The notes: generated by a model not told the origin, from the letters alone. DNA of 64,000 nt from Clostridia bacterium (GCA_017483305.1 JAFULC010000009.1:7337-71336); one strand, 5' to 3'. Counted from the stretch's first letter, positions 1 to 21,344 are shown. Numbers and translations are program-made.

Positions 1-675
1 TCCACCATTCTCGCACTTCTCATCGCGGTAGGACTTCACTCCATCAAGCCTCTGCAGAAGCTCCTGCAGACGATCTTCTTCCTGCCCTACGTTACCAACT
101 CTATCGCAATAGGAATGGTATTCGCGGCAATGTTCAATATAGTTGGTATCAACTCCACGCAGGAGTCTGTCGGTATCATCAATAATATATTGGGAGTATT
201 TGGAGTAGAAAGAATCAACTGGATCAACTACGGTGCAGAAACCTGGGCAAGCTTCACAGCCCTTATCGTGTACATCGTATGGAATGCTCTCCCCTTCAAG
301 ATACTCATTCTTCTCGGCGGTCTTCAGAGCATAAACAAGCAGTACTACGATGCGGCTAAGATCGATAGCACTCCCAAGTGGCGCGTTCTTACCAGAATCA
401 CAGTTCCGTTGCTTTCCCCCATGCTCACGTATACTGTCATCACCAGCTTTATCGGCGGATTCAAGGAATACTCCAGCGTCGTCGGTATCTTCGGTGAGGA
501 TAAAGCAGTTGCGGGCGGTGCGAATATGAATACCATAGTAGGACATATTCAGAATCACCTTACAATTACTCGCGACTACGGTCTTGCAGGCGCAGCGGCG
601 CTTATGCTGTTCGTAATCATATTTATCGTAACAATGATCAACTTGCGTATAAGCAAGAAGAGCACCCATTATTAA
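1..675 (+). CDS. ABC importer permease, CUT1 (MalF/UgpA-like); 5' end lies outside the window
   Basis: Frame 1 is open from nt 1 (STILALLIAVGLHS... precedes the listed Met at 115). Hydrophobic multi-TM protein with the binding-protein-dependent permease loop (DAAKIDSTPKWRVLTRITVPLLSP). A second permease gene starts 19 nt downstream. Confidence 0.85.
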   Translation, partial: STILALLIAVGLHSIKPLQKLLQTIFFLPYVTNSIAIGMVFAAMFNIVGINSTQESVGIINNILGVFGVERINWINYGAETWASFTALIVYIVWNALPFKILILLGGLQSINKQYYDAAKIDSTPKWRVLTRITVPLLSPMLTYTVITSFIGGFKEYSSVVGIFGEDKAVAGGANMNTIVGHIQNHLTITRDYGLAGAAALMLFVIIFIVTMINLRISKKSTHY

Positions 676-694
676 GAGAGGAGGCACGTCTAAT

Positions 695-1738
695 ATGGAA
701 AATAATTCTAACTCCTCGTTGAAGGTAATGAAGGAAAAGGATATCCGCAAGGTTGCCTCTACCCAGAAGGTTGCTAAGGTCTTTGGTCAGATCCTCGTTT
801 ATACCTTCCTCGGTATAATGGCTCTGATAGTGCTTTTCCCCTTCTACTTCATGATAATTTCTTCACTGAAGTCTCTTGAAGAATACAGATTGGCTGTTCC
901 CACTCTGATTCCTCAGTCCTGGAAATTCCAGAACTATACCGACATACTCATCCCGTTTGAAATGGCAGAGGCTAACGGTTGGGTAGGAACGCTCGTTTCT
1001 CCCGAAGCCGCAACCAACGATTTCGACCTTTTCACTCTTTTCAGAAACACCATGTTCGTAGGTATCGTTTCAACGATACTGTCATTGGTCATCACCGTGC
1101 TTTCCGCATTTGCCTTTGCAAGACTTAACTTCAAGGGTAAAAACGCGCTCTTTGCAGCGCTTCTCGGAACTATGATGATCCCCGGTGAGCTTTTCACCAT
1201 CACGAACTACGCAACGGTTATGACTAAGGGCGGTTGGTTCCCCACCTTCTTTAACGGTCTCGGAAATATGTTCGGTCTCTTTGGTCCTGATTTCCGTATC
1301 CCGTTCGTTGATTCGAGCTTTGCGGCTCTGATCGTTCCCTTCTTGGTAAGTGTGTTCTATATTTACCTTCTCAGACAAAACTTTTTGCAGATACCCAACG
1401 AGCTTTACCTCGCCGCTAAGGTAGACGGTACCAGCGACATCAAGTATCTCTGCAAGGTTATGATCCCCCTTGCGCTCCCCACCATTATTTCTATCACGAT
1501 ACTCAAGATGATGGGCGCTTGGAACTCTTACATGTGGCCCCGACTCGTTGCAAACGACGATGCTCACAGACTTATTACGAACGGTCTGAGAAACGCGTTT
1601 AACGACGTTTCAGGTAACACAGACTACCCCCGTCAGATGGCGGCGGTCGCACTCGTTTCGCTTCCTTTGTTCTTGGTGTTCATTTTCTTCAGAAAATACA
1701 TCATGAAGGGCGTAAGCCGAAGCGGTATCAAGGGTTAA
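695..1738 (+). CDS. ABC importer permease, CUT1 (MalG/UgpE-like)
   Basis: ATG at 695 preceded by GAGAGGAGG. 347 aa, multi-TM, with permease loop LAAKVDGTSDIKYLCKVMIPLALP. Confidence 0.85.
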   Translation: MENNSNSSLKVMKEKDIRKVASTQKVAKVFGQILVYTFLGIMALIVLFPFYFMIISSLKSLEEYRLAVPTLIPQSWKFQNYTDILIPFEMAEANGWVGTLVSPEAATNDFDLFTLFRNTMFVGIVSTILSLVITVLSAFAFARLNFKGKNALFAALLGTMMIPGELFTITNYATVMTKGGWFPTFFNGLGNMFGLFGPDFRIPFVDSSFAALIVPFLVSVFYIYLLRQNFLQIPNELYLAAKVDGTSDIKYLCKVMIPLALPTIISITILKMMGAWNSYMWPRLVANDDAHRLITNGLRNAFNDVSGNTDYPRQMAAVALVSLPLFLVFIFFRKYIMKGVSRSGIKG

Positions 1739-1804
1739 TCGCTTTTTCGACCAAAAGAAAGAGCTTAACACAAATATAATTTTATTATATGGAGGACAAA
1801 AACC

Positions 1805-3376
1805 ATGAAAATGAGAATTCTTGCGCTTTTGATGGCGGTATTCTGTTGTTTGGGCTGCTTTTCGTTCGTAGCGTGTGATAACGGTTCTTCCGAAGAAATC
1901 ACAACAGTTCCCGACAACGACGAAACTACAGTAGCCGACGGCGACGAAACCACCGTTACAAACGGTGACGAAACCACCGTTGCAGGCGGTGACGAAACCA
2001 CCGTTGGTGGCGATGAAACCACCGTTGACGGCGGCGACGAAACCACCGCAGGTGGAGTGGCAAATCAGGATGAAGGCTATGATGGAAGCGCAGTAACCAT
2101 TACCTTCTATCACACTATGGGTCAGAACCTTCGTGAAGTTCTCGATGCTTACATCGTAGAATTCAACGCACTCTACCCCAACATCACCATCGTGCATGAG
2201 CAGGTTGGTAGCTACGACGACGTTCGTGACCAGATCAGTACCGAGATCACCGTTGGTAACCAGCCCAACATCGCGTACTGCTATCCCGACCACGTTGCAG
2301 TCTACAACATCTCCAAGGCAGTTTATCCGCTTGACGCGCTCATCGACAATATGGCAGAGGTAACCCGTGCAGACGGCACCACCGAGCGTATGGGTCTTAC
2401 ACAGAAGCAGATCAACGACTTTATCCCCGGCTACTACGCTGAGGGTAAGCAGTTCGGTGACGGCAAGATGTATACACTTCCTATGTCCAAGTCTACCGAG
2501 GTTCTTTACTACAACGCTACCTTCTTTGCAGAGCACGGTCTCACTCCTCCTACCACTTGGGATGAGATGGAGGAGCTTTGCAAGAAGATCAAGGAGATCG
2601 ATCCCACTTGCATCCCCCTCGGATATGACAGCGAAGCTAACTGGTTCATCACTATGACCGAGCAGCTCGGTACTCCCTACACCAGCGCAACAGGCGAACA
2701 CTTCCTCTTCAACACTCCCGAAAACAGAGCGTTTGTTAAGGAATTCAGAAGCTGGTTCGAGGCTGGCTACGTAACCACTCAGGATATCTTCGGTGCATAC
2801 ACCTCTGGATTGTTTGTAGAACCCGATCCTTCCAAGCAGAGAAGCTATATGTCCATCGGATCCTCCGCAGGTGCTACCCACCAGCGTCCCGAAAAGGTTG
2901 ACAACGAGTATCCCTTTGAGGTTGGAATCACCAGCATTCCTCAGGCTAACCCCGATCAGCCCAAGGTTATTTCTCAGGGTCCCTCGCTCTGCATCTTCAA
3001 CAAGGCAAACATTCAGGAGGTTTATGCTTCTTGGCTCTTTGTGAAGTACCTCACCACCACCATTGAATTCCAGGCAGAATTCTCTATGGTATCGGGTTAC
3101 GTTCCTGTTCTTAAGTCCGTTGCAAAAAATGAAACCTATGCAGCTTGGCTCGATAAGGCTGACGGCGGTGCAAACATTGCAGCGCTCTCCGCAAAGGTTT
3201 GTCTTGATCAGGCAGACGCATACTACACCTCCCCTGCATTCAACGGCTCCTCCGTTGCTCGTGACGAGGTTGGTAAGCTTATCAAGGACTGCTTCTCCGC
3301 AGAAACCGACGACGTTGATGCTATGATCGCAAAGGCGTTTGAGGATGCGGTAGAAAAGTGCAAGTACCTCTCTTAA
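1805..3376 (+). CDS. ABC importer extracellular solute-binding lipoprotein (family 1)
   Basis: ATG preceded by GGAGGA. Signal peptide plus lipobox (CFSFVAC|DNG), an acidic DETT(V/A) x6 tether, then a ~430-aa solute-binding-protein-like body. Sits directly after the two permease genes. Confidence 0.8.
   Translation: MKMRILALLMAVFCCLGCFSFVACDNGSSEEITTVPDNDETTVADGDETTVTNGDETTVAGGDETTVGGDETTVDGGDETTAGGVANQDEGYDGSAVTITFYHTMGQNLREVLDAYIVEFNALYPNITIVHEQVGSYDDVRDQISTEITVGNQPNIAYCYPDHVAVYNISKAVYPLDALIDNMAEVTRADGTTERMGLTQKQINDFIPGYYAEGKQFGDGKMYTLPMSKSTEVLYYNATFFAEHGLTPPTTWDEMEELCKKIKEIDPTCIPLGYDSEANWFITMTEQLGTPYTSATGEHFLFNTPENRAFVKEFRSWFEAGYVTTQDIFGAYTSGLFVEPDPSKQRSYMSIGSSAGATHQRPEKVDNEYPFEVGITSIPQANPDQPKVISQGPSLCIFNKANIQEVYASWLFVKYLTTTIEFQAEFSMVSGYVPVLKSVAKNETYAAWLDKADGGANIAALSAKVCLDQADAYYTSPAFNGSSVARDEVGKLIKDCFSAETDDVDAMIAKAFEDAVEKCKYLS
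1919..2050 (+). repeat. In-frame degenerate tandem repeats encoding (x)GDETTV x6
   Basis: gacgaaac(c/t)ac(c/a)gt units recur six times. They translate as DETTVADGDETTVTNGDETTVAGGDETTVGGDETTVDGGDETTA. Confidence 0.75.
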
Positions 3377-3406
3377 TTTCGAATTATTACACAGGACAAA
3401 TTAATA

Positions 3407-4891
3407 ATGAAAAAAATCATTAGCAATTTGCTTGTAGTTGCATTGCTGATAGGCTCCCTTCTCGGTTGCCTGTCAGCCTGCAACTCCGCAGGCAACACAG
3501 ACGAAACAACCGTCACCGAGGAGCAGACCACCGAGTCTGTAATTCAAGACGGTGAAGACACCACGAGTAGCGAGCAAAGCACTACCGAGGGTGAAACAAC
3601 CGAGGGTGAGACAACCGAGGGTGAAACGGAAGATGAAACAACAGCTGCCGACGTTCACGTTGACTATGCCGCTGAGGTAAAGCTGGATATGAACTCCGAC
3701 ACTCTTAAGCAAGAGGTAACGGTAAAGGCGTTCATCGACGGTGACACCACTCACTTCAACGTGCCTACCTCGGTTATTGAGACAGGCGTTATCAAGGCGA
3801 GATATCTCGCCATCAATACTCCCGAGTCAACAGGTAAGATCGAGGAATGGGGCAAAACAGCAGCCGCATTCACCAAAGAAAAGCTTTCCACAGCTACTTC
3901 TATCATTATCGAATCGGACACTGAAACACTCAATGCAGACTCCACCGGAGACAGATATATGCTTTGGATCTGGTACAAGACCGCTGAAAGCGACGAGTAC
4001 CGTAACCTCAACATTGAAATTCTCCAGAACGGATTGGCAATCGCATCTAACTCCTCAAACAACCGCTACGGCGACACCTGCATGGCGGCTATCGCCCAGG
4101 CAAGAGCTGAAAAGCTGTGTGTTTATTCAGGAGTAAAGGATCCCAACTTCTACTATGGCGAGTCGGTAGAGCTCACACTCAAGGAGCTCCGTTGCAACAT
4201 TGAAAGCTACAACGGTATGAAGGTTGCCTTCAACGCGATCGTAACTCAGGACCATGATAACGCGGTCTACGTCGAAAGCTACGACGAGGAAACCGGCGTT
4301 TGGTACGGAATGTACATTTACTACGGCTTCAATATGAATGGTGATGCCCTTGAAATTCTTTCCGTAGGCAACGAGGTAAGAATCGTAGGTACCGTTTCCT
4401 ACTATGAAACGGGTAATACATATCAGGTGTCGGGACTTTCTTACCGTATGATGAAGCCCGACGATCCCTCTAATATCCAGAAAATAAGCGACGGTCACGA
4501 GCCCGTATATCTTCCCACCTCCCCCGAGCGTTATGCAAACGGAAAGGTTGACGTAACACTCACGGATAGCGAAGATAACGTAACAACCAACACCTATGAT
4601 TACGCTGCCCTTGCGATCTATTCCTCCATCTCCATGGAAGGACTTTACGTAAAGAGAGCGTATGCCACCACTAATCAGGCAAGCGACGACTTCGGAGCAA
4701 TGACTCTTATCTGCGAAGCCAACGGTGTAACCGTGCAGATTCGCACCACCGTATTCAGAGATGAAAACGGCGAGCTCGTCACCACCGATTACTACGTTGG
4801 CAAGACCATTGACGTAAAAGGAATCATTGAATATTTCAGTGGCGACTATCAGATCAAGGTCTTTAATCAGAATAATATTACTATCAAGTAA
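3407..4891 (+). CDS. Secreted lipoprotein thermonuclease (staphylococcal nuclease fold) with C-terminal OB-fold-like region
   Basis: Lipobox LGCLSAC|NSAG and a GETTE repeat tether. SNase motifs in the correct order: FIDGDTTHF, ARYLAINTPES, GKTAAAFTKEKL, GDRYMLWIWY, ILQNGLA, AQARAEKLCVYSG. Confidence 0.7.
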   Translation: MKKIISNLLVVALLIGSLLGCLSACNSAGNTDETTVTEEQTTESVIQDGEDTTSSEQSTTEGETTEGETTEGETEDETTAADVHVDYAAEVKLDMNSDTLKQEVTVKAFIDGDTTHFNVPTSVIETGVIKARYLAINTPESTGKIEEWGKTAAAFTKEKLSTATSIIIESDTETLNADSTGDRYMLWIWYKTAESDEYRNLNIEILQNGLAIASNSSNNRYGDTCMAAIAQARAEKLCVYSGVKDPNFYYGESVELTLKELRCNIESYNGMKVAFNAIVTQDHDNAVYVESYDEETGVWYGMYIYYGFNMNGDALEILSVGNEVRIVGTVSYYETGNTYQVSGLSYRMMKPDDPSNIQKISDGHEPVYLPTSPERYANGKVDVTLTDSEDNVTTNTYDYAALAIYSSISMEGLYVKRAYATTNQASDDFGAMTLICEANGVTVQIRTTVFRDENGELVTTDYYVGKTIDVKGIIEYFSGDYQIKVFNQNNITIK

Positions 4892-4927
4892 TATATAAGT
4901 AAAAAATCATAATTAAAAGGAGACGTT

Positions 4928-7255
4928 ATGAAAAAACTACTTGCACTTTGCTTAGCACTTCTCTTGTGCATGTCTGTTTTTGCAGCTTGTGGTACAGGTA
5001 ACTCCGGTGAAGATGGCACCACAGACGGCAACGAGCAGACCACCACAAAGGAGGATGAAACCACCGCAGGCGATTCCGAGGAAACCACTGTAGGTGATTC
5101 CGAGGAAACCACTGTAGGCGATTCCGAGGAAACCACTGTAGGTGACTCTGAAGAAACAACCGTAGGCGATTCCGAGGAAACTACTGCTTCCGAGTCCGCA
5201 TACGACGTTAACGCAGCGATTGAATTCCTTAACTCTCAGTACAAGGGTAAGGACCAGACTACCCCAGCTGACTATGAGCTTTACGGTCAGGTAATGGTCG
5301 GTCTCGACAAGTACATGGTTACTTGGACAGTCGACAGCGATAAGGTTAACGCAGTAGAGGGCAGCCCTAAGTGGACTATCGAGGTTAACGAGATGTCGCT
5401 TGAGACTGTTAACTACAAGATCACCGCTACCGTTACCGCACCCGACGGAACAACCGCTACCGTTTCCTACGATCGCGTAGTTCCTAAGTTTGAAGTTACC
5501 TCCTTCGAGGACTATATGGCAGCTACCGAGGGCAACGTTACCGTTGCAGGTATCGTTGTCGGTATCAACGCTAAGAGCGCAGGCAACACCAGAAACCACC
5601 TCTTCCTCGCTGACGTTGACGGCAAGGGCGGTTACTACTGCTACCAGCTCGACAGTGATCCCCTTGAGGCAGGTGTTGAACTTGGTATGACCGTAGCCGT
5701 TACCGCTCCCGTATCTCCCTACAGCGGAATGCAGGAGACCAAGGGTGGAGCCTTCGTAATCATTGACGAGACCATCAAGGATATTCCTGTTTTTGATATC
5801 ACCGAAAAGTTCGCAGCAGGCGAGAGCCTCAAGAACTACGTAGGTCTCGTAGTAACCATTAAGGGTGTTACTATCTCCAACCAGGAGCTTGGCGGAACCA
5901 GCGAGTACCTTAACTTCGAGCTTAACGGTCAGAAGGCATACGTAAGAACCTACGTAACCGACTTCCCCACCACTCTTAAGGCAGCAGACAAGGCTACCAT
6001 CGATGCAGCACATGCAGCTAACTTTGGTAACACTGCAGATGCTACCGGTATCCTCGTTCTTTACAGCGGCAAGCCCTACCTCATTCCTACCAGCACCGAT
6101 TGCTTCTCTAACTATACCGTAGTTACTAAGACCGATGCTGAAAAGGTTGAGGCTGAGCTTGAGGAGCTTGTTGTTTCCGGAGATATTACTGCTGATACCA
6201 CTCTTGCTCTTCCTCTCGTTGGTCAGTTCTACGACGACGTTAAGTTTGCTTGGACCGTTGACAATGCAGAGTATGCTATTGGCGAAGACGGCAAGGTTGA
6301 AATTGTACTTACTGCTAATGCAGTCGTTCTCAAGTTCACTGTTACTGCAACCTGCGGCAAAGTTACCGAAACCAAAGAATACACCGTAAACGTTGCTGCT
6401 AACTTTGTAATGTCCACAACTCGTCCCTACACACCCTATATTAACCAAGTAACCGCAGGCAAGGTTCTTTTCCTTGACGGTGGCGTTAGCGGCAGATACC
6501 TCACAACCACCACCGACGTGGCTAATGCTGTTGCAGTATATGCTGAGCAGGCTGAGGGCGGCTACAAGTTCTACATCCTCGTTGATGGCGCAAAGCAGTA
6601 CATCACCATTTATAACAATGCTGATGGAAAGACCTCCGTTAACTACGATGCAAACGGAACCACTGTATTCTCTTATAATCCCACTGTAAACGCCTTCACA
6701 ACCAACTTTGGCGGTAATGACGTTTACCTCGGCACATACAACAACTTTGAAACAATCAGCGTATCCAACCTTTCCTACATCAATGCAGAGAACACCGGCG
6801 TAAGCCAGTTCCCCCTTGAGCTCCTCGCAGCAGCTCCCGGCGCTTCCTACACCGGATCTCTTACTCAGGTTAATCTTGAGAACAAAGTTCTTTATCTCGA
6901 CGGTGGCGTAAGCGGCAGATACCTCACCACTACCGAGAATGTTGCAAATGCTGTAGCAGTATATGCTGAAAAGGTTGATGGCGGCTTCAAGTTCTACATT
7001 ATCGTTGAGGATGCAAAGCAGTACATCACCGTATACAACAATGACGAGGGCAAGCTTTCGGTTAAGTACGATGCTGCAGGCACCTCCGTATATGAGTACG
7101 ATGCAACTGTTAACGCTTGGGTCACCGTATTTGAGAATGCCGAGTACTACCTTGGAACCTACAACACCTTTAACACCATAAGCGCTTCCAAACTTTCTTA
7201 CATCAGTGCAGAGAATACCGGCGTAAGCCAGTTCCCCCTCGAATATAATAATTGA
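4928..7255 (+). CDS. Secreted lipoprotein of unknown function (OB-fold-like N-terminal half, tandemly duplicated ~120-aa C-terminal domain)
   Basis: AAAGGAG SD, lipobox SVFAAC|GTGN and a GDSEETTV x5 tether. No enzyme motif recognised. The antisense 785-aa ORF is a shadow. Confidence 0.7.
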   Translation: MKKLLALCLALLLCMSVFAACGTGNSGEDGTTDGNEQTTTKEDETTAGDSEETTVGDSEETTVGDSEETTVGDSEETTVGDSEETTASESAYDVNAAIEFLNSQYKGKDQTTPADYELYGQVMVGLDKYMVTWTVDSDKVNAVEGSPKWTIEVNEMSLETVNYKITATVTAPDGTTATVSYDRVVPKFEVTSFEDYMAATEGNVTVAGIVVGINAKSAGNTRNHLFLADVDGKGGYYCYQLDSDPLEAGVELGMTVAVTAPVSPYSGMQETKGGAFVIIDETIKDIPVFDITEKFAAGESLKNYVGLVVTIKGVTISNQELGGTSEYLNFELNGQKAYVRTYVTDFPTTLKAADKATIDAAHAANFGNTADATGILVLYSGKPYLIPTSTDCFSNYTVVTKTDAEKVEAELEELVVSGDITADTTLALPLVGQFYDDVKFAWTVDNAEYAIGEDGKVEIVLTANAVVLKFTVTATCGKVTETKEYTVNVAANFVMSTTRPYTPYINQVTAGKVLFLDGGVSGRYLTTTTDVANAVAVYAEQAEGGYKFYILVDGAKQYITIYNNADGKTSVNYDANGTTVFSYNPTVNAFTTNFGGNDVYLGTYNNFETISVSNLSYINAENTGVSQFPLELLAAAPGASYTGSLTQVNLENKVLYLDGGVSGRYLTTTENVANAVAVYAEKVDGGFKFYIIVEDAKQYITVYNNDEGKLSVKYDAAGTSVYEYDATVNAWVTVFENAEYYLGTYNTFNTISASKLSYISAENTGVSQFPLEYNN
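5069..5188 (+). repeat. Five tandem 24-bp in-frame repeats (GDSEETTV)
   Basis: The unit ggcgattccgaggaaaccactgta is repeated head-to-tail five times with a few substitutions. Confidence 0.9.
6458..7252 (+). repeat. Intragenic tandem duplication (two ~120-aa domain copies)
   Basis: VLFLDGGVSGRYLTTTTDVANAVAVYAEQAEGGYKFYILVDGAKQYITIYNN...NTGVSQFPLE (6458-6825) recurs as VLYLDGGVSGRYLTTTENVANAVAVYAEKVDGGFKFYIIVEDAKQYITVYNN...NTGVSQFPLE (6880-7252). Confidence 0.85.
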
Positions 7256-7338
7256 TTTGTAAACAAAAAAACACAAAATCCAAATTACAGCTATTGACTT
7301 TGTTAACAAATAAGTCTCTACTGTAAAATAAAAATTAT

Positions 7339-7367
7339 GGCACTCGCTTTGCGAGTGCCATTTTTTT
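7339..7367 (+). terminator. Rho-independent terminator
   Basis: ggcactcgc-tttg-gcgagtgcc followed by attttttt, 84 nt after the stop at 7255. Confidence 0.75.
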
Positions 7368-7387
7368 GATTTCTTTTCATAAAGATA

Positions 7388-7416
7388 TTGATAAAAGTCG
7401 AAAAATGTAGTATAAT
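7388..7416 (+). promoter_or_regulatory. SigA-type promoter for the RNase lipoprotein gene
   Basis: TTGATA - 17 nt - TATAAT. Confidence 0.5.
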
Positions 7417-7449
7417 TATTCCATCGATATTAATTTGAAAGGTCAAAAT

Positions 7450-8883
7450 ATGAATTCAGGCAAAAAACTACTATCGCTATTACTTGCATTAGTAATTTTC
7501 ATCACCGTCCTTACGGGTTGTGATCCTTTTTCGGATTTCAACGATTTGCCGAGTGAAACTACCGGTGAAAGCTCGAGCGAAACCTCTGATAATTTTCCCT
7601 CCGATGAGACGTCGGAAGAATCCACCGAGCAGGAATCGATGCAGGGAGACGAAACGACGACAGAGGTCGAAAATAACGGCAGTATTGCCATTCTCCAAGG
7701 CAGCGAATACACTTTAGAGGTTGGCGACAGTATAAGATTGACGGTTTACAAGTCGGCTTCTATCAAAGATACTGTAGGCTGGTTCGCCGAAGGTCAAACC
7801 GTATACGTTGATGAAAACGGACTTGTAACTGCCCTTTCCGTAGGTGATGCGACCGTTACCGCGTTTGTAGGCAGCATCTCCGACAGTATCGTAATTCACG
7901 TTGTTGAAAAGGAGATCGAGACCACCGAATCAGTCACGACAGAAGCAACCGAAGAAACTACTGAATCCGTCGAAACCGGAGAACGAGATGAGCTTGAAAA
8001 GCGTCCCGTTGACGAAATCTTTGAGGCGGTCAACTCTCCCTCGGACTACACTCCCGCAGGAAGCTACGAGGATGCGCTGGATCGTTCTCAAAACGGCGAG
8101 CTTTCGGGTTATCCCTTTGTCCCTGATCAAGCTCCGATCATCTCGGAATATCAACCGATGAAGGACGGAAAATTCATTAAAAACAACGATTCGTATTATA
8201 TTGATTATAATACGTACGTAGTCATCGACGCTTATGGGCGCGAGGTCTTCCGCATCTACCGCGGAGGCGCATACATAACGCTTGAGGAGGTTGCGGCGTA
8301 CGTCTATGCCTTTGGATCTGTGCCTGCAAATCATGCCTCAGGTAAGAGCACCAAGCCCACGTCAAGCATCTGGGAATCATATTTGCGAGTCAACCACACA
8401 AGATTCAGCGGAGACACCTCACGCTACCCTTATGAGCCCGAGCTTCCGCGCATAAGCGGATGCGGCGGAGATCTGCAATATTGGGAAATGGACATCGGAA
8501 CCACAGGTACCGACTGTGATCCCTCTTACCGTCCTGCACTGTATAATAACGGATCAAAGATAACTCGCGGCGCGGCAAGAATCGTTTATACCTGGAACGA
8601 CCTTAACAACAACGGCATAAACGACGGAAACGACGTAGTTTTCGTCTTCTACACCTACAACCACTACAATGATTTTCAGGAATATCTCAATTATTACGGT
8701 GGATGGGGAGAAATGTTTGGAAATATTACGGGTGGCGGAAAGCTTTCCAGCAAGACCAACTACAATCCCACCGAATACGTGCCCGTATATTCGGGATACC
8801 TTAAAGACGGAATATCCAAGGCTGAATACGTAGTATTGGCGTGGGTAGACCGCCGTGCATTCGAGCTTTTGTTGAATGCATAA
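7450..8883 (+). CDS. Secreted lipoprotein with Ig-like (Big_2-type) domain and C-terminal barnase/N1/T1-family ribonuclease domain
   Basis: The track start at 7435 is TTG, so I prefer ATG 7450 (MNSGKKLLSLLLAL...LTGC|DPF lipobox). Big_2-like stretch: TLEVGDSIRLTV...VTALSVGDATVTAF. C-terminal alignment to barnase landmarks: VAAYVYAFGSVPANH, YWEMDIG, RGAARIVY, TYNHYNDFQEY. Confidence 0.65.
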   Translation: MNSGKKLLSLLLALVIFITVLTGCDPFSDFNDLPSETTGESSSETSDNFPSDETSEESTEQESMQGDETTTEVENNGSIAILQGSEYTLEVGDSIRLTVYKSASIKDTVGWFAEGQTVYVDENGLVTALSVGDATVTAFVGSISDSIVIHVVEKEIETTESVTTEATEETTESVETGERDELEKRPVDEIFEAVNSPSDYTPAGSYEDALDRSQNGELSGYPFVPDQAPIISEYQPMKDGKFIKNNDSYYIDYNTYVVIDAYGREVFRIYRGGAYITLEEVAAYVYAFGSVPANHASGKSTKPTSSIWESYLRVNHTRFSGDTSRYPYEPELPRISGCGGDLQYWEMDIGTTGTDCDPSYRPALYNNGSKITRGAARIVYTWNDLNNNGINDGNDVVFVFYTYNHYNDFQEYLNYYGGWGEMFGNITGGGKLSSKTNYNPTEYVPVYSGYLKDGISKAEYVVLAWVDRRAFELLLNA

Positions 8884-8890
8884 ACGCAAA

Positions 8891-8924
8891 AACACCGACG
8901 AACATAGTTCGTCGGTGTTTTTTG
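8891..8924. terminator. Bidirectional intrinsic terminator between convergent genes
   Basis: aaaaacaccgacgaac-ata-gttcgtcggtgtttttt has a 12-bp stem with an A-tract 5' and a T-tract 3'. Confidence 0.75.
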
Positions 8925-9015
8925 ATTTATTTCCTGATTTTTTGGATTTCAAACTTCTTACAAGCCTTGTAACTTCCCGAATAATGAGGAAAAACATATT
9001 GAAAACCGTGCAGGT

Positions 9016-11985: not shown

Positions 11986-13080
11986 TCAATTGACTCCCAT
12001 TCTCTCTTTAATACGCTTTAATTCGTCCTCAAATTTCGGGTTTCTTAAATCCCCGTCCACCTTCCATTGCGGCATCATATCCCAATAAGGCACATTTGAC
12101 CCCTCTTCAATGCACTTAAGTAATATGGGAAGCTTAATATTTAAGCTCCATCCTATGCCATTATTGCTATAATCGGCTTTAATTGCTAATAAGCTCGCAA
12201 TTTGGGCAAAGACTTTGCCGTTTTGATAACAAAAAACATTAGGATGTTTAATATCAATGCTTCTTCCGTAGTGAACTGTGTAATTATCTTCGTCGGGTGC
12301 AATAGGTATGTTTCCAATTATTTCACATTCACCATAATAAAAAATATTATCCATAATCATTTGTGAAGGCAACATTTTATAGCCAACAAGCTGATCAGGT
12401 GTGAGGGTTTTATCCTCGGTTACAATATGATACACTGCTACACAAAGCGGTTTCCCCATAAATATATCCCAAAATGGAACTCCGTCTTTTCTCATCTTGG
12501 CATAGTCAACAAGAATACGGCCGTATCCGTACAGATGTCGACTTATTTTAAATCTAAAAAAATCTCCCTCCTGATATTTTTTGTGCGTCTTTTTACGCTG
12601 AGAAAACTCATTTATTTCTGACATCTCCTCAACCCCCGTATGACAACACCACATCTCTACCCAATCAGCAAAAGCTTGAAGATCTTTGATCTCATTGGAT
12701 TCGTAATCAGAACGATAATAATTTTGACTGGTATTATTGTTTACTACAACTATTTTGCCACGATTAAATGCAAGCGCCATTCCTACAGGCGTTTTACTTG
12801 TCAGACTTGAAACAGTTAAAATCTGTGGCTTGCCCTTGCTGGTTTTCGGCATTATTTTTGTACAGTCGTCGGATAGGAGCAGATCTACGCCATATTCATA
12901 ATACATTTCTTTTCCTGCAAAATCACATACTTGTATTACTTTAACTATTCTTTTACCATCCAAAAATGCATAGGTAATGAAATCATCGTTTCCCCCTGCT
13001 TTTATCTGAATTTTACGCCACGATTCAAGCACAGGTGTCAAGGCAAAACACTTTCTCTGTTCATTAGTAAGTTCAAACAT
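11986..13080 (-). CDS. Hypothetical protein (364 aa); middle region resembles immunity-protein-like families (weak)
   Basis: ATG with a GAAGGAG SD. The GDFFRFKISRHLYGYGRILV stretch is reminiscent of Imm26-type domains, but this is an unverified recollection. Confidence 0.55.
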   Translation of the reverse strand: MFELTNEQRKCFALTPVLESWRKIQIKAGGNDDFITYAFLDGKRIVKVIQVCDFAGKEMYYEYGVDLLLSDDCTKIMPKTSKGKPQILTVSSLTSKTPVGMALAFNRGKIVVVNNNTSQNYYRSDYESNEIKDLQAFADWVEMWCCHTGVEEMSEINEFSQRKKTHKKYQEGDFFRFKISRHLYGYGRILVDYAKMRKDGVPFWDIFMGKPLCVAVYHIVTEDKTLTPDQLVGYKMLPSQMIMDNIFYYGECEIIGNIPIAPDEDNYTVHYGRSIDIKHPNVFCYQNGKVFAQIASLLAIKADYSNNGIGWSLNIKLPILLKCIEEGSNVPYWDMMPQWKVDGDLRNPKFEDELKRIKERMGVN

Positions 13081-14269: not shown

Positions 14270-15394
14270 TTATACGAGAAGGTTAGCCTGCGTTTCGGGA
14301 TCAAAGAAATGCATTACCTTTCCTTCAAAGGTTACGTAAATGGTGCTGCCGTAAACGAGCGAGGCTCTCTGCTCATCGCTGAGCGAAACGGTAGGAATAC
14401 GAACGATGAGCTTATCACCGTTGTCCTCTACCACGTGGAGATGAAGCTCGCTTCCCATCATTTCGTTTACCACGATCTTGCAAGGAATAGCCTCAGGGTT
14501 GTCGGAGCTTGAAAGAACGAAGTGCTCGGGACGAACACCGAGAATGACCTCGCGAGATCCGATTCTCTTACCCTTGAGCATTTCTGCCTTCTTGCCGGTC
14601 ACCTCTATTTTTGCGCCGTAGGGATTGACGTAATACTTATCGCCCTCACAAACAAGCTTGGTCTTAAAGGTGTTCATCTTGGGAGCGCCGATAAATTCCG
14701 CAACGAAAAGGTTGAGCGGCATATCAAACACCTCTGTGGGAGTGCCTACCTGCTGAATGAATCCGTCCTTCATGATAACGATTCTGTCTCCGAGTGTCAT
14801 AGCCTCGGTCTGATCGTGAGTTACGTAAATAAATGTAGTGTCAATCTTCTGACGGAGCAAAATGATCTCTGCTCTCATCTGGTTACGGAGCTTAGCGTCG
14901 AGGTTGGAGAGCGGCTCATCCATAAGGAATACCTTACTGTCTCTTACCATTGCGCGTCCGATCGCAACTCTCTGTCTCTGATCGCCCGAGAGAGCTCTGG
15001 GCTTTCTCGTCAGATACTCGGTGATGCCCAGTATCTCGGCTGCCTTGGTTACCTTTTCGTAAACGATCTCGTTGGGAACGTTCTTGAGACGGAGGCTGAA
15101 CGCCATATTCTCAAATACCGTCAGGTGAGGATAGAGCGCGTAGTTCTGGAATACCATCGCGATATTACGGTCACGGGGCTGAAGATCGTTAACGACTACA
15201 CCGTCGATCTCAACAGTACCCTCCGAAATATCCTCAAGACCCGCGATCATTCTAAGCGTGGTGGACTTACCGCATCCCGAAGGACCTACGAAAACGATAA
15301 ATTCCTTGTCGGCAATATCAAGGTTGAATTCCTGAACCGCAACCGTGTCCTTGCCGTATATCTTCTTTACGTTAGTTAATTTAACACTTGCCAT
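14270..15394 (-). CDS. Sugar ABC transporter ATP-binding protein (MsmK/MsmX/UgpC/MalK type)
   Basis: GPSGCGKST Walker A, LSGDQRQRVAIGRA signature and FLMDEPLSNLD Walker B, plus a MalK-type C-terminal regulatory domain. ATG 15394 with GGAGGAAAAT is preferred over the TTG at 15406. Confidence 0.9.
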   Translation of the reverse strand: MASVKLTNVKKIYGKDTVAVQEFNLDIADKEFIVFVGPSGCGKSTTLRMIAGLEDISEGTVEIDGVVVNDLQPRDRNIAMVFQNYALYPHLTVFENMAFSLRLKNVPNEIVYEKVTKAAEILGITEYLTRKPRALSGDQRQRVAIGRAMVRDSKVFLMDEPLSNLDAKLRNQMRAEIILLRQKIDTTFIYVTHDQTEAMTLGDRIVIMKDGFIQQVGTPTEVFDMPLNLFVAEFIGAPKMNTFKTKLVCEGDKYYVNPYGAKIEVTGKKAEMLKGKRIGSREVILGVRPEHFVLSSSDNPEAIPCKIVVNEMMGSELHLHVVEDNGDKLIVRIPTVSLSDEQRASLVYGSTIYVTFEGKVMHFFDPETQANLLV

Positions 15395-15406
15395 ATTTTC
15401 CTCCAA

Positions 15407-16291
15407 TTATCCTTTTACTGCTCCGCCGGTTACGCCCTCAACGTAGTACTTCTGTAATGCGAGGAAGACCGCAACTACGGGAATCGCCACGATAACGCCC
15501 GCGGCACAGAACATAGTGTAATGCGTGTTCATATTAGTTCGCGAGAGCCATTCGTACATACCGACCGCAACGTTCATACCCTGACTGTTCTCATGAATGA
15601 GATAGCTGGCAAGAACAAAGTCTCCCCAAGGAGCCATAAAGCCCATAAGGATAGTGTAAATAACGATCGGCTTGGAAAGCGGCATAATAACCTTGTAGAA
15701 CACCTGGAAGCGCGTTGCGCCGTCCACTCTTGCCGCCTCGTCAAGGCTCTTCGGGATCGTATCGAAAAATCCCTTCGATACGTAGTATCCCATAGCACTG
15801 CTCGCACAGTAAACGATTATAAGTCCCAAGGGAGCCATTTCCTCGATCAAATGTGCATCCGCAAACACCTTGTAGATAAGGATCATAGTAAGGAATCCGG
15901 GAAACATTCCGAGAATGAGCATCATATTCATCAGCGCCTTTCTTCCCTTGAAGCGAAGTCTGGAAAGAACGTAGCTCATAGACAGAATAAATATCGTCTG
16001 AAGCACTGCGGTAGCAACGCCCATGATCGCGGTGTTGCCGAACCACTTAAGGAAGTCGGTCTTTGTAAAGAGCTTGACGTAATGGTCAAAACCAAATTCC
16101 TTTGGGAAAAGGTAAGGAGTCTGCATATTTGTTTCGGTCTTAAAGGATTCAAGAAGGATACCGACAAACGGAAAAAGCCAAACTATCGTGATAATAATGA
16201 GCACAATATAAATTATCGTGTTGCTTATTCTTCTGCTTGCACGCGCACCCAGCCCGGTTTTTCTGATTTTGTTATCGTTTTGTTTTTTCAT
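15407..16291 (-). CDS. Sugar ABC permease (MalG-like)
   Basis: DEAARVDGATRFQVFYKVIMPLSKP permease loop. ATG 16291 overlaps the upstream TGA by 1 nt, with GAGGAGGA upstream. Confidence 0.85.
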   Translation of the reverse strand: MKKQNDNKIRKTGLGARASRRISNTIIYIVLIIITIVWLFPFVGILLESFKTETNMQTPYLFPKEFGFDHYVKLFTKTDFLKWFGNTAIMGVATAVLQTIFILSMSYVLSRLRFKGRKALMNMMLILGMFPGFLTMILIYKVFADAHLIEEMAPLGLIIVYCASSAMGYYVSKGFFDTIPKSLDEAARVDGATRFQVFYKVIMPLSKPIVIYTILMGFMAPWGDFVLASYLIHENSQGMNVAVGMYEWLSRTNMNTHYTMFCAAGVIVAIPVVAVFLALQKYYVEGVTGGAVKG

Positions 16292-17850
16292 CACTTGTAA
16301 TCCTCCTCATTTCTGGTTGACGGAATTACGTTATAGACGATCAAGGACAGTACCGCGACCACAAGGAAGACAAGAATACCGATAATTGATGCCATATAAT
16401 ACTTACTCTCCGTGCTTCCAAGTGTCATCTTGAAGAGCCAGGTGATAAGCAAGTCAGTGTGACCTACCGACGCTCCTCCCGCCGTTCCCTTGATCGGGTT
16501 ACCGCCCGAGAGAAGATAAATAACGTTAAAGTTGTTAAGGTTACCTACGAAGCTCGTAAGCAGATAGGGACCCGTAACAAAGAGCATATAAGGAAGCGTG
16601 ATCTTCGTTAACTGCTGAACCGAGCTCGCGCCGTCTATCTTTGCGGACTCGTAAAGGTCCTGAGGAATATTCATCAATATTCCCGTTGCCATCAGCATGA
16701 TATAAGGAATACCTATCCAGATATTGATAACGATAAGCAAGATCCTCGCAACTGTCGGCGAATCCCAGAGGGATACGAAATTATTTGCAACTCGCCAGTT
16801 GTGAATGAAGGGTATCTGCTCGAGAACTCGGCCTATAAGTCCTGAGGTCGTAAAGAGCTTCGAAACGTAAAGCAGAGATACGAACTGCGGGATCGCGATA
16901 GTCATAACGAGAACCGTTCTCCAGAATTTTTTGATCTTGATTCCCTTCTTGTTGATCATGATCGCAACGAACATACCAAGGAAATAGTTAGTAAAGGTTG
17001 CGAAGAACGCCCACATAAGAGTCCAGGAAAGGATCTCACCAAAGGTAAGACCAAGACCACCCTGGCTGAAGTTAAAGAGCTCGTTAAAATGATCGAGACC
17101 TACCCAGCTGAAGAGGTTGGAATAACCGTCGTGTGCTGCATCGTAGCTTGTGAAGGCAACGAGCACCATGTAGATAATGGGAAGCACGGTAAACGCCAGA
17201 ATTCCCGCCAATGGAAGAGCCAGAAGCGTCTTGTGGAACTGATCGTCGAGCAACGATTTCACATCGTCCTTGCCGCTTCTTATCTTTTTGCCCTTTGCAG
17301 TGATATCCATACAGATACGGCACTGCTTTACCTGAAGTCTCCATGTGTAGATAAAGGCAAAGATAAATATGAAGGTAAGAAGTCCGTAGAGCATTACCTT
17401 TACAGAGTCATCTCCCGGTACCCAAACGTCAGTGTCGAAAACCTCATTGTACTGGAATCCGCCCTGAACGGTACCAATAGTTGCACCCTTTTGAAACCAA
17501 TTTCCCTTCGAGAGCCAATATATACCGCCCGTAGGAACGACCATATACGCGATAAACACAAGCTCGAACAAAAGGAATAGGATTCCACGCATTACCTGTC
17601 CGTAGAACAGGTTTCCAAATCCAAAAATAAAGAAGGATAGCTTTACCGCCCAGTTTCCGCGCTTGAAGGTTGATCCGATGTCAACGAATTCGTCTTTGAC
17701 CGCGATGCCGCAGTTTTTGAAGAATCCACCTATCTTCTTTATTCCCTTCCATAAAGCCGACGGAATAGCGCAAAAGAATAACGCAAACTTATACCAGAAA
17801 GCCTGCCATTTATTCAGTTTTAAATAATCCAGATCGCTTAGTCTTTTCAT
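16291..17850 (-). CDS. Sugar ABC permease (MalF-like, long N-terminal extension)
   Basis: 519 aa, multi-TM, with loop ESAKIDGASSVQQLTKITLPYML. Confidence 0.85.
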   Translation of the reverse strand: MKRLSDLDYLKLNKWQAFWYKFALFFCAIPSALWKGIKKIGGFFKNCGIAVKDEFVDIGSTFKRGNWAVKLSFFIFGFGNLFYGQVMRGILFLLFELVFIAYMVVPTGGIYWLSKGNWFQKGATIGTVQGGFQYNEVFDTDVWVPGDDSVKVMLYGLLTFIFIFAFIYTWRLQVKQCRICMDITAKGKKIRSGKDDVKSLLDDQFHKTLLALPLAGILAFTVLPIIYMVLVAFTSYDAAHDGYSNLFSWVGLDHFNELFNFSQGGLGLTFGEILSWTLMWAFFATFTNYFLGMFVAIMINKKGIKIKKFWRTVLVMTIAIPQFVSLLYVSKLFTTSGLIGRVLEQIPFIHNWRVANNFVSLWDSPTVARILLIVINIWIGIPYIMLMATGILMNIPQDLYESAKIDGASSVQQLTKITLPYMLFVTGPYLLTSFVGNLNNFNVIYLLSGGNPIKGTAGGASVGHTDLLITWLFKMTLGSTESKYYMASIIGILVFLVVAVLSLIVYNVIPSTRNEEDYK

Positions 17851-17912
17851 AATACAAATATAAACCGAGTTTATATAACTCCTTTCCGATCAGAGTGCTC
17901 ATAACGAGAAGA

Positions 17913-18005
17913 CATTGTTAGCCGACACACAAGACAAGTGTCCGTCCTATGCATCGGCTAACAATGCCTTTGTCGAGGATAGCGGATCGCAAGGATCCGC
18001 TATCC
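17913..18005 (-). other. Two strong hairpins in the binding-protein/permease intergenic spacer
   Basis: A 13-bp stem, cattgttagccga (17913-17925) / tcggctaacaatg (17954-17966). A 12-bp stem, ggatagcggatc (17977-17988) / gatccgctatcc (17994-18005). Neither has a U-tract. Confidence 0.6.
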
Positions 18006-18033
18006 CTTAGATAAATATCAACTTAAACCGATA

Positions 18034-19575
18034 TCAGCTTACCTTTGTGATTTCAACATTAACGTCACCGTAGTTGCCGCCATCCCAAGAGAATACGATC
18101 TTGTAAGTTCCAGCCTCTTCAACCTTAAAGTTTGCACCCTGGTTATCTGTAAGATCCACACCAAAGTTGTGTGTCCATGCATAACCCTGACGAACCTTAA
18201 ATTCACCACCCTCAGGAAGCTCAACTGTAGCCGTCCAGGTGTTTTCGGGGCTTTCAACCATCGCTACGTCAACGTCCCAGTTGGAACCGTTAACCTGACC
18301 GATAACTGTCCAAGCTCTTCTCTGCTCGGGAGTGAGATCGAGCCATGCACCGATAGCAGTATCATAGTTGTTAAGAGCGTTCTGGATATCTTCATCGGAT
18401 TTAGCATTCTTAGCCTCTGCGCCAAGAACCTTTGCGATATCCCACCAAGAACCGCCTATCTGACACTGAGGGATCGCATGCTCGTTCTGCATTGCAAGTG
18501 CTGCAAGGGACTCGTTAGACTGAACTGCTTCAGATGCCTGAGCATTCTTGTTGGAGGGACCCCACTCGAAGCTCTCGAATCTCTGCTTCTGGCACTCTTC
18601 ACCGGTGAGGTACTGAGCGAGGAGCGAAAGAACTGCTGCCTTCTTAGCATCGGTCTGAGGCTTAACACCCATAAGCTTGTTACCGGAGTAAGAGCCGAGG
18701 TGATAGGAAGTACCGTCAACAGTGAAAGAAGGAAGATCGGTAGCACCGAGGTTTTCGCCAAAGTGCTCTGCTGCTGCGCCTGCATTCCAGATACCGGTAA
18801 CGATAGCGCCTGCGTCTGCAAATGTATCAGCATCGGAGTCGTAGCAAGAAGACTTAGCAAGCTTCTGCATACCCTTCATAGCAATGATACCCTCAGCGGA
18901 ATTGAAGGTGTCGTCAATAGAAACGAATTCGCCACCCTCATCCATAGTCCAGTTGGAGTGACAACCGGTTGCGAAGAAGAAGGAAGCGGTGTACCAAGCG
19001 TTCTCAAGAGCGAAGCGGAACTTCTTGCCGTTTGCTTCACATGCAGCGATAATAGCCTCGAGACTATCAGCATCCTCTTCAGAGATGATGCTCTTATCGT
19101 AGTAGAGGTAGTAACCGTTATCACTGGTCATAGGATAAGCATAGATAGTACCTGCAACGGTTGCTGCTGCAACGGAGCCTGCATCGTTGTTAGCCTTGAT
19201 AGCGTCTGCTGCTGCCTTACCGGGAGCTGCAAGAGCTGCTGCCTGAACAAGACGAGCGAGCTGGTCCTGTGCGAAGCAGTAAATGTCGGGAGCAGTTGCA
19301 ACGTCTGCAACTACCTTGGAGCCTGCATCAGCCTCGGTTACGCCCTCGATAGAAGCGTTGATGATGATGCCGGGGTTAGCTTCCATAAAAGCTGCGATCT
19401 GCTGCTTGAACTGGTCTGCAACGCCTTCTTTTTCAGAAACCCACATGGTAATATCGTAAGTACCAGCAAGCTCAGAATTGTCGTTTGTTTGGCCACCGTT
19501 GTTATTACATCCAACGAAGCATGCAACAAGCATCATAGCCGCCAGAACAAGAGCTAAGATTTTACTCATTTTCAT
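18034..19575 (-). CDS. Maltodextrin/oligosaccharide-binding lipoprotein (MalE/CycB-like) with extra C-terminal beta-sandwich (starch-binding-CBM-like) domain
   Basis: ATG 19575 with an AAGGAGG SD and lipobox ACFVGC|NNNG. MalE-like body. The last ~95 aa (WTVIGQVNGSNWDVDVAMVESPENTWTATVELPEGGEFKVRQGYAWTHNFG...) show the aromatic pattern of starch-binding modules. Confidence 0.8.
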   Translation of the reverse strand: MKMSKILALVLAAMMLVACFVGCNNNGGQTNDNSELAGTYDITMWVSEKEGVADQFKQQIAAFMEANPGIIINASIEGVTEADAGSKVVADVATAPDIYCFAQDQLARLVQAAALAAPGKAAADAIKANNDAGSVAAATVAGTIYAYPMTSDNGYYLYYDKSIISEEDADSLEAIIAACEANGKKFRFALENAWYTASFFFATGCHSNWTMDEGGEFVSIDDTFNSAEGIIAMKGMQKLAKSSCYDSDADTFADAGAIVTGIWNAGAAAEHFGENLGATDLPSFTVDGTSYHLGSYSGNKLMGVKPQTDAKKAAVLSLLAQYLTGEECQKQRFESFEWGPSNKNAQASEAVQSNESLAALAMQNEHAIPQCQIGGSWWDIAKVLGAEAKNAKSDEDIQNALNNYDTAIGAWLDLTPEQRRAWTVIGQVNGSNWDVDVAMVESPENTWTATVELPEGGEFKVRQGYAWTHNFGVDLTDNQGANFKVEEAGTYKIVFSWDGGNYGDVNVEITKVS

Positions 19576-19608
19576 AAGTAAACCTCCTTGAAATAAATAA
19601 TTGTTATT

Positions 19609-19623
19609 TGCGTGTCTCACGCA
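19609..19623. promoter_or_regulatory. Perfect palindrome TGCGTG-aga-CACGCA at the predicted transcription start (candidate operator)
   Basis: A 6-3-6 inverted repeat lying 7-21 nt downstream of the -10 box at 19630-19635. Confidence 0.3.
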
Positions 19624-19629
19624 CATATT

Positions 19630-21334: not shown

Positions 21335-21344
21335 TACTCCACCT

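Follow-up and report, generated by a model that had tools for sequence, protein, structure and literature searches.

Introduction

Why would an importer of the sugar type be encoded side by side with nucleases that are exported to the cell surface? The question is raised by positions 1-8883 of a stretch of 64,000 nucleotides (nt) from a Clostridia bacterium (GCA_017483305.1 JAFULC010000009.1:7337-71336), which as a whole is called the window in the following. A first-pass annotation of this stretch had pointed to an ATP-binding cassette (ABC) importer of the CUT1 type together with secreted nuclease lipoproteins and had proposed a locus for the scavenging of extracellular nucleic acids. The contents of gut and rumen are rich in extracellular DNA and RNA, the use of these by anaerobic Firmicutes is poorly described, and the idea that a surface nuclease and a sugar-type ABC transporter belong together dates from mycoplasma work and was never settled biochemically.

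The region is best explained as the 3′ two-thirds of a seven-gene operon, here called the cassette, which encodes an RDD-family membrane protein, a UgpC/MalK-type ATPase, two permeases, a solute-binding protein (SBP), a staphylococcal nuclease (SNase) lipoprotein with two oligonucleotide/oligosaccharide-binding (OB) folds and a further lipoprotein with OB folds. We regard it as probable that this cassette is a nucleic-acid utilisation locus, in which DNA and RNA would be digested at the cell surface and phosphorylated products of the digestion imported. Gene content, folds, residue conservation and the conserved linkage were established directly, and what we say beyond these is inferred from them.

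Results and Discussion

Conservation of the cassette as a unit

GTDB was scanned with one genome per species using an alignment of the SBP and three of its relatives as query, and 455 genomes were found to encode an SBP relative. The best 80 of them (61-88% identity) were taken with 10-kb flanks and annotated in tblastn searches that used cassette proteins from three reference loci as queries, a gene being counted only where the contig reaches its position. All 80 are genomes of uncultured gut, rumen or faecal Clostridia, under labels such as Oscillospiraceae, Christensenellaceae, Faecousia, Pelethomonas and Eubacterium sp. CAG:841. As far as the contigs extend, the order RDD-ATPase-permease-permease-SBP-nuclease-OB lipoprotein is retained in these species-level loci. 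The SNase gene lies directly 3′ of the SBP gene in 74/74 loci and is followed by the OB lipoprotein gene in 60 of 61; upstream of the SBP gene we found permease 2 in 73/76, permease 1 in 70/70 and the ATPase in 69/69 loci, and the RDD gene directly before the ATPase gene and on the same strand in all 66 loci that extend so far. Thus, the linkage of transporter and nuclease that had been noticed in a single sequence holds in related genomes, and the pairing of a nuclease with a sugar-type ABC transporter is seen in at least 80, probably several hundred, species of walled Clostridia.

The same seven-gene core was found independently on five further contigs from metagenomes or metagenome-assembled genomes (MAGs), which were reached via homologues of the 775-amino-acid (aa) OB lipoprotein. 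The homologues P0054, P0006 and P0087 (contigs L002/L003, L004 and L005) show 43-67% identity over most of the 775-aa protein, and even beside P0105 and P0116, which are weaker and cover about half of the 775-aa query, the core is still present. The genes beyond it vary from locus to locus, with NAD synthase/MarR, Dus/HAD, pyruvate:ferredoxin oxidoreductase or integrase/NUDIX genes as neighbours. As these outer flanks differ between the loci, the core moves as one block, and its conservation goes beyond that of an inherited neighbourhood.

Between window positions 1 and 8883 six genes follow each other head to tail on the plus strand (Table 1). The gaps inside the core measure 19-66 nt, and those between the SBP and SNase genes (30 nt) and between the SNase and 775-aa genes (36 nt) are exactly as first described; the domain matches also agree with the two CUT1-type permeases, the binding lipoprotein, the SNase lipoprotein and the OB lipoprotein that had been read from this strand. 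One strong terminator closes the core. It and the terminator behind the ribonuclease (RNase) lipoprotein gene are the only convincing ones on the plus strand, and the promoter that had been placed with the first of them ahead of the RNase gene could be located between the two.

The locus had been described as cut by the window edge and as lacking a visible ATPase gene. The edge indeed truncates permease 1, of which only 224 C-terminal codons lie inside the window, but the ENA metagenome contig L001, which overlaps the start of the window with one mismatch in 2635 nt, carries an ATPase gene just 5′ of permease 1 and the RDD gene just ahead of it, and therefore the locus has its own ATPase. Upstream of the RDD gene there is an AT-rich intergenic region of 480 nt, in which a good promoter is found. 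UgpC is the best NCBIfam match of the ATPase from the close relative L004 (E 7e-104, under the cut-off). The assignment to CUT1 (TC 3.A.1.1) is borne out for each component: both permeases contain PF00528 (BPD_transp_1) and have MalF/UgpA and UgpE/MalG as their best NCBIfam matches (for permease 2, UgpE and MalG both stay under the equivalog cut-offs), the SBP is of the SBP_bac_1/SBP_bac_8 type with CUT1 SBPs as its only relatives in the PDB, and the gene for an ATPase of the MalK/UgpC type with a C-terminal regulatory domain lies inside the locus, although outside the window. A second ATPase gene, starting at window position 14270, had been regarded as an orphan-style MsmK-type gene. It is no orphan, since it is contiguous with genes for two permeases, an SBP and a GH13 alpha-amylase and forms the last gene of their operon.

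In all four exported proteins of the locus a lipobox cysteine ends the signal peptide and an acidic linker rich in T, E and D comes next, as read from the sequences (residues ~25-95 in the SBP), and these linkers are encoded by short tandem DNA repeats. For SBP, nuclease and 775-aa lipoprotein, repeats of 24 nt (45/48 nt) and 15 nt occur in the linker regions at 1918-2048, 3584-3627 and 5057-5186, and the length of the linkers differs among relatives.

Table 1: Features of the cassette and of the neighbouring ABC operon (window coordinates, unless contig L001 is named).
Feature	Coordinates	Strand	Remarks
RDD-family membrane protein	L001 6168-6929	same strand as ATPase	directly precedes ATPase gene
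MalK/UgpC-type ATPase	L001 6992/7016-8119	cassette strand	ABC_tran; faint OB_MalK and CysA_C matches
Permease 1, whole gene, 620 aa	L001 8119-9981	cassette strand	gene call on overlapping contig
Permease 1, C-terminal 224 aa (full length 620 aa)	1-675	+	MalF/UgpA-like; PF00528 E 1.9e-17
Permease 2, 347 aa	695-1738	+	UgpE/MalG-like; PF00528 E 4e-14
SBP lipoprotein, 523 aa	1805-3376	+	SBP_bac_8 (PF13416) E 5.9e-35; SBP_bac_1 (PF01547) E 1e-21
SNase lipoprotein, 494 aa	3407-4891	+	PF00565 E 1.3e-8, above gathering score
OB-fold lipoprotein, 775 aa	4928-7255	+	OB folds from structure model and from PF01336 of homologues
Intrinsic terminator	7337-7361	+	11-bp stem, 7 G-C pairs, then T run; ends ABC-nuclease operon
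Sigma-70-type promoter of RNase gene	7388-7416	+	TTGATA, 17-nt spacer, TATAAT; 11/12 consensus matches
RNase lipoprotein (probable), start at TTG 7435 (482 aa) or ATG 7450 (477 aa)	7435/7450-8883	+	Big_2 E 1.3e-8; PF00545 E 0.0027 (sub-threshold)
Intrinsic terminator after RNase gene	8888-8922	+	16-bp stem, then T run
Neighbouring operon: GH13 alpha-amylase, SBP with C-terminal extra domain, MalF-like 519-aa permease, MalG-like permease, MalK-type ATPase	14270-23348	-	
MalK-type ATPase of the amylase operon	14270-15406	-	last gene of operon

The binding protein and its putative ligand

Among solved structures the closest relatives of the SBP are 7C0F and its point mutants (E ~4e-18 over ~355 residues), followed by E. 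coli UgpB (E ~5e-13), and ordinary sugar binders from the PDB score far lower. SI Table S5 of PMC12718374 lists 7C0F as a CUT1 protein from Thermus thermophilus that binds uridylyl-3′-5′-phosphoguanosine (UpG, U3G; Chandravanshi et al. 2021, cited there), and a UgpB/phosphodiester branch of CUT1 is defined in the same paper by coordination of the phosphate through two Tyr and two Ser. We aligned the SBP of the window and its 80 relatives with E. coli UgpB, the numbering of which was checked on the K-12 sequence. Y137, S230, S353, Y432 and G392, which correspond to UgpB Y42, S121, S247, Y323 and G284, are invariant in 81/81 sequences, so that all four phosphate-coordinating residues of this branch are present throughout. 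In contrast, the residues with which UgpB holds the glycerol are replaced in all 81: E66 has become N, W169 is A, S or G, W172 is F, and R374 is G or A. The SBP is thus not UgpB proper, the binder of glycerol-3-phosphate (G3P): it scores 65.6 with the UgpB model of NCBIfam, for which the cut-off is 411, and the Trp169/Trp172 clamp is replaced along with Glu66 and Arg374.

Judging from its solved relatives and these residues we place the SBP in the UgpB/U3G branch of CUT1, which binds phosphodiesters. Small residues at the position of the former glycerol clamp would enlarge its pocket. A phosphate site that is kept together with a G3P-specific clamp that is lost suggests a phosphate ester larger than G3P as ligand, for which nucleotides and di- or short oligonucleotides are the likeliest candidates. 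With this the cassette appears to give the clearest residue-level hint so far of a phosphate-bearing ligand for such a transporter. The first-pass annotation had noted that CUT1 systems usually take up oligosaccharides, polyols or glycerol-phosphate compounds and that nucleosides are normally handled by another ABC family. According to PMC12718374 the cargo of CUT1 systems is mostly sugars or glycerol-phosphate compounds; a rule that they do not deal with nucleotides is softened by 7C0F, a CUT1 protein that binds a dinucleotide.

The nuclease, the OB lipoprotein and a shared domain

In the AlphaFold2 (AF2) model of the SNase lipoprotein (predicted local distance difference test, pLDDT, 83.4) the nuclease domain (residues ~95-245) is followed by two C-terminal OB folds. 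In Foldseek searches the nuclease domain matched SNase structures with a template-modelling (TM) score of ~0.8, a root-mean-square deviation of ~3.2 Å and 25-29% identity, and the C-terminal 240 residues matched the tandem-OB DNA binders Teb1 AB and p204 HINab. The family is very large, with >7000 clusters at 90% identity among the candidates at E ≤ 0.001, and 34 diverse members share the invariant motifs IDGDT, R-Y/F-L, N-T-P-E-S-T-G-K and G-D/G-R, which leave the counterparts of D21, R35, T41 and E43 of S. aureus nuclease unchanged in the whole set. Alignment and model together indicate that the lipoprotein keeps the SNase fold and, as it seems, most of the catalytic residues. The products of S. 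aureus SNase are 3′-phosphorylated mono-, di- and oligonucleotides.

The 775-aa lipoprotein has no recognisable catalytic domain or signature. Its lipobox and acidic repeat linker are followed by an N-terminal beta domain, two OB folds, an aBig_2-like (Ig-like) domain and two all-beta domains of ~140 aa each (residues ~495-635 and 636-775), which we call R domains. A whole-chain Foldseek search with the AF2 model (pLDDT 89.3) returned mostly generic multi-beta-domain proteins, and only the matches to HIN-200 in the PDB and to viral LEF-3 were informative; the two OB folds match the HIN-200 tandem-OB binders of double-stranded DNA. Many of the 344 homologues of the lipoprotein carry PF01336 and PF20578, and one of them has a domain of the PLD type (PF13091). 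By their models both the SNase and the 775-aa lipoprotein carry tandem OB folds.

A profile search with the R domain gave nothing significant in Pfam or among PDB sequences. The domain, which is encoded twice at window ~6410-7252, occurs again in an ectodomain of permease 1 (L001 ~8240-9000). Between the first and second transmembrane segments (TM1 and TM2) and outside the window part of the gene, this permease carries an insert of ~340 aa, which matches the R repeats of the lipoprotein by BLASTP with E 3e-14 over 231 residues and contains one clear R copy (residues ~163-294) besides a second, weaker copy (~44-160). The hydrophobic segments of permease 1 lie at residues 8-39 and from 378 on, and since permeases of this type usually have their N-terminus inside the cell, the insert should face outward. 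The long form of permease 1 is confined to the nearest relatives of the window (L008-L011), and elsewhere the protein has ~315 aa; the R domain is therefore ancestral in the lipoprotein, and a copy entered the permease in this lineage. The shared domain is a further tie between transporter and lipoprotein, and one might speculate about a role in docking or in substrate hand-over. In L005 it is permease 2 and not permease 1 that is enlarged (506 aa, 5383-6903). Its N-terminal extension of ~200 residues looks hydrophobic and gave no R-domain match, and this permease was therefore dropped as a possible carrier of the domain.

The RNase lipoprotein as an accessory

The RNase lipoprotein combines a Big_2 domain with a C-terminal barnase-like domain of ~250 aa, the family of which comprises 174 representatives at E ≤ 1e-30. 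The domain scores 18.6-20 bits for PF00545, below the Pfam threshold of 24, the match is weak in all of the 19 of 35 family members that show it, and a domain-profile search of the PDB found no RNase and only Ig-domain matches that stem from the N-terminal parts of some members. The alignment with barnase residues 6-107 by hhalign is itself weak (pairwise E 0.009, probability 4.5%), and in its columns barnase E73, R83, R87 and H102 fall in this order on the invariant E351, R378, R382 and H410. Two insertions interrupt the barnase-like motifs Y-x-E-x-D-I, R-x-x-x-R-I-x-Y and N-H-Y-x-x-F. We accept as probable the barnase/N1/T1-type assignment that had been made at first sight. No gene for a barstar-like inhibitor lies beside it, since the terminators and a convergent SDR gene leave no room. 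The RNase gene was found in 11/80 loci, always on the cassette strand between the OB lipoprotein and SurE genes, and is therefore a recurrent accessory and not a part of the core.

Nucleotide-processing neighbours

In relatives the cassette is often followed by further genes, usually in convergent orientation, and these were counted within 10 kb in the 45 loci whose contig continues for 9 kb or more downstream. Two tandem DHH/DHHA1 (NrnA-like) genes are present in 29 of these loci, SurE in 24 and an HD-domain (dGTPase-like) gene in 14. By NCBIfam the DHH/DHHA1 pair is assigned to NrnA, a bifunctional oligoribonuclease/pAp phosphatase (E 1e-71 to 1e-74, under the equivalog cut-off), the SurE proteins to the 5′/3′-nucleotidase above the TIGR00087 cut-off, and the HD proteins are dGTP triphosphohydrolase-like. 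None of the NrnA-like, SurE and HD proteins has a signal peptide. In one locus (L087, 13366-13908) a PTS_2-RNA gene for an RNA 2′-phosphotransferase of the KptA/Tpt1 type stands between the OB lipoprotein and SurE genes; going by its sequence, this would be another RNA-end-processing enzyme at a cassette locus.

A possible route from digestion to import

The membership of the SBP in the phosphate-binding branch, the NrnA, SurE and dGTPase-like neighbours and the tandem OB folds led us to favour the nucleic-acid scavenging locus with import of a nuclease product that had been suggested at the outset, and the following sequence of events can be envisaged. Extracellular DNA or RNA would be retained on the cell by the OB lipoprotein together with the OB folds of the surface nuclease, as the folds suggest, and the SNase domain would cut the polymer into short products. 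Where the RNase is present it would take part in the cutting and add RNA fragments with a 3′-phosphate or cyclic phosphate. A phosphate-ester product might then be captured by the SBP and passed on to the permeases and the ATPase for import. In the cytoplasm, NrnA-type nanoRNases, which act on short oligonucleotides and remove 3′-phosphates, and SurE, which acts on 5′- and 3′-nucleotides, could complete the breakdown; the genes for this last step lie next to the cassette in many relatives and not in the window.

A more specific version of this route is plausible, although we put it forward only tentatively. Hundreds of species of gut and rumen Clostridia would possess a dedicated locus in which a surface complex of OB-capture protein and SNase-OB nuclease feeds 3′-phosphorylated di- and oligonucleotides to a UgpB-derived CUT1 importer, with NrnA and SurE finishing the degradation and the R domain docking the capture protein onto the transporter. 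If this is true, it would be the first physiologically assigned ABC importer for oligonucleotides in Firmicutes and a tractable model for the mycoplasma system, which has long been assumed and is unproven. An oligonucleotide as ligand would also widen the substrate range of CUT1 importers and mean that nucleic-acid fragments do enter Gram-positive bacteria in phosphorylated form. Moreover, thousands of gut-metagenome entries that are now called ‘extracellular solute-binding protein’ or ‘hypothetical lipoprotein’ could then be annotated.

Several observations weigh against a nucleic-acid utilisation locus. Gram-positive bacteria are generally thought to import nucleosides and not phosphorylated products. 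The loci inspected are the 80 best of 455 related genomes, all of them from related Clostridia. In the SBP the positions that are mutated in the 7C0F entries differ, with S in place of T, L in place of Y and H in place of Y. We had taken the positions substituted in the deposited mutant entries as contact sites, presuming that they mark the binding site; as they are not conserved, the ligand need not be a dinucleotide, and we do not conclude that it is UpG. Within the SNase family the Ca2+ ligand D40 is invariantly Asn, and the invariant Arg of ‘GDR’ lines up with R87 only when the following beta-strand (LVWVW vs LAYIY) is aligned by eye, the HMMER alignment being two residues off. Seven loci, with the upstream region included, were scanned against Rfam and gave neither a riboswitch nor a leader, and thus there is no riboswitch or regulator that points to nucleotides and no regulatory clue. 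Finally, NrnA and SurE are housekeeping genes that are absent from the neighbourhood of the window locus; no SurE, NrnA or HD gene was detected in the window at E ≤ 1e-5, and the RNase gene is followed by ~42.6 kb of unrelated genes (9016-51674). In L004, which has 87-98% protein identity, SurE-NrnA-NrnA-HD occupies that position and the adh/Vut1/M20/AKR genes come directly after the HD gene. In the window these latter genes (51680-55672) are separated from the RNase gene by the block 9016-51674, which looks like an insertion or replacement, possibly an assembly join.

The main rival explanation is that the transporter imports a phosphate ester or sugar that is not a nucleotide, such as glycerophosphodiesters, teichoic-acid fragments or a matrix sugar, and that the nucleases only clear or remodel extracellular DNA. 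This would fit the usual cargo of CUT1 systems (PMC12718374), the resemblance of the SBP to UgpB and also to binders of the glycerophosphocholine (GPC) type, and the 7C0F mutant positions that are not conserved. However, the glycerol contacts E66, W169 and R374 of UgpB are gone from every SBP in the alignment, and the called genes of eight fully gene-called contigs include no glycerophosphodiesterase, glycoside hydrolase or teichoic-acid enzyme (for the other 80 loci the screen of the flanks was restricted to the query families). The recurrent neighbours are instead nucleotide-processing enzymes, and the strict adjacency of SBP and nuclease genes would be hard to explain without a relation of substrate and product. 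Weakened in this way, the explanation seems unlikely to us.

It is less probable still that nucleic acids are scavenged but imported in unphosphorylated form, as nucleosides or deoxyribose, after extracellular nucleotidases have stripped off the phosphate. Nucleoside uptake is usual in Firmicutes, and some loci do have a secreted-type protein of the Metallophos/5′-nucleotidase family within 10 kb. This gene is no part of the core, though, and was detected in only 3/80 loci (L031, L037 and L073) and in two of the six metagenome or MAG loci reached via the OB lipoprotein (L002/L003 and L005), and in the SBP none of the four phosphate ligands of the clade is lost. Nucleoside-binding SBPs such as P48 of mycoplasmas presumably belong to a different family, the BMP/PnrA type, and an adjoining cytoplasmic SurE with two NrnA paralogues suits phosphorylated imports better.

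That the lipoprotein genes and the transporter cluster by coincidence or merely through inherited synteny, as the first-pass annotation had allowed, is hardly credible: the loci examined all come from related uncultured Clostridia and part of the synteny will be inherited, but the core order is kept across 80 species-level loci although SBP identity drops to 61% and that of the OB lipoprotein to 43%, the outer genes differ, short gaps and a single strong terminator at the end mark the core, and permease 1 and the OB lipoprotein have a domain in common.

Comparison with known systems

The favoured reading, surface digestion followed by import of phosphorylated products, resembles what has been proposed for mycoplasmas. 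In Mycoplasma agalactiae an operon consists of MAG_5030 (P80), MAG_5040 (SNase) and the ABC genes MAG_5050/5060/5070, with mhp379 as the example from M. hyopneumoniae (PMC3585158), and in this paper and the review PMC12115388 the P80-SNase-ABC operon is described as conserved in the M. hominis group, co-transcribed and a proposed importer of nucleic-acid precursors. Both systems combine an SBP-like lipoprotein, an SNase lipoprotein, one ATPase and two permeases of the sugar type in a conserved cluster with clade-wide linkage, and in both the nuclease is proposed to supply precursors to the transporter and the ligand is putative. As to orthology with the mycoplasma genes, the single hint is a weak NCBIfam lipo_P68 match of the SBP (E 2.9e-6). 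They differ in gene order, as the mycoplasma SBP and nuclease come first whereas the order in Clostridia is RDD-ATPase-permeases-SBP-nuclease, and in their hosts, which are walled gut and rumen bacteria in one case and minimal parasites in the other. Furthermore, the nuclease of the Clostridia has two OB folds, and an OB lipoprotein, a conserved RDD gene and, in the lineage of the window, a permease ectodomain are added. We found no description of the cassette in walled Clostridia in open-access literature text. The concept is thus that of the mycoplasma work, and what is new is the large host range together with the OB lipoprotein, the RDD protein, the R domain and the OB-tailed nuclease.

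Thermus 7C0F, the nearest solved relative, shares the phosphate-binding branch of CUT1 and its Tyr/Ser/Ser/Tyr with the SBP, although the match is remote and the mutant-entry positions differ. With UgpBAEC, the sn-glycerol-3-phosphate importer of E. coli, the cassette has in common the UgpC-like ATPase, the UgpA/UgpE-like permeases and the phosphate ligands of the SBP. In contrast to that system the glycerol contacts are replaced, all matches stay under the equivalog cut-offs and the locus contains no phosphodiesterase of the UgpQ type.

YhcR of Bacillus subtilis also unites OB folds and a thermonuclease domain on a surface-anchored protein, and one homologue of the OB lipoprotein carries the JGI label ‘DNA/RNA endonuclease YhcR’. 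YhcR is a single wall-anchored polypeptide of OB fold, SNase and 5′-nucleotidase and thus has its own nucleotidase domain, and to our knowledge it is not linked to an ABC importer, whereas in the Clostridia the functions are spread over lipoproteins within a transporter operon.

Loci of Izemoplasma and Hujiaoplasma with nucleases, NrnA, nucleotidases and ABC transporters have been read as serving growth on DNA and RNA, with growth and induction data for Hujiaoplasma, where a locus with RNase, NrnA and ABC transporters is induced by DNA or RNA (text passages of PMC10470597). Here too extracellular nucleases are co-located with nucleotide-processing enzymes and ABC transporters. Unlike the cassette these loci include a phosphate ABC system and otherwise differ in gene content, and a UgpB-type SBP coupled directly to an SNase lipoprotein is not described for them in these passages. 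Mycoplasma P48 was set aside as a parallel, since it is described as a nucleoside binder (PMC12892991).

Other genes in the window

The operon at 14270-23348 on the minus strand is a separate CUT1 system of the amylase/maltodextrin type, and beside it lies a gene for a GH53 galactanase lipoprotein. Further along, a block of five very large genes on the minus strand (33325-51399) contains two that start with a Tubulin_2 (PF13809) GTPase domain, at 41570-44386 (938 aa, E 1.7e-26) and 44510-48301 (1263 aa, E 3.6e-35); their neighbours of 2026, 689 and 1005 aa gave no Pfam match. A protein of 364 aa encoded at 11986-13080, also on the minus strand, carries an Imm26 immunity-protein domain (E 1.3e-18).

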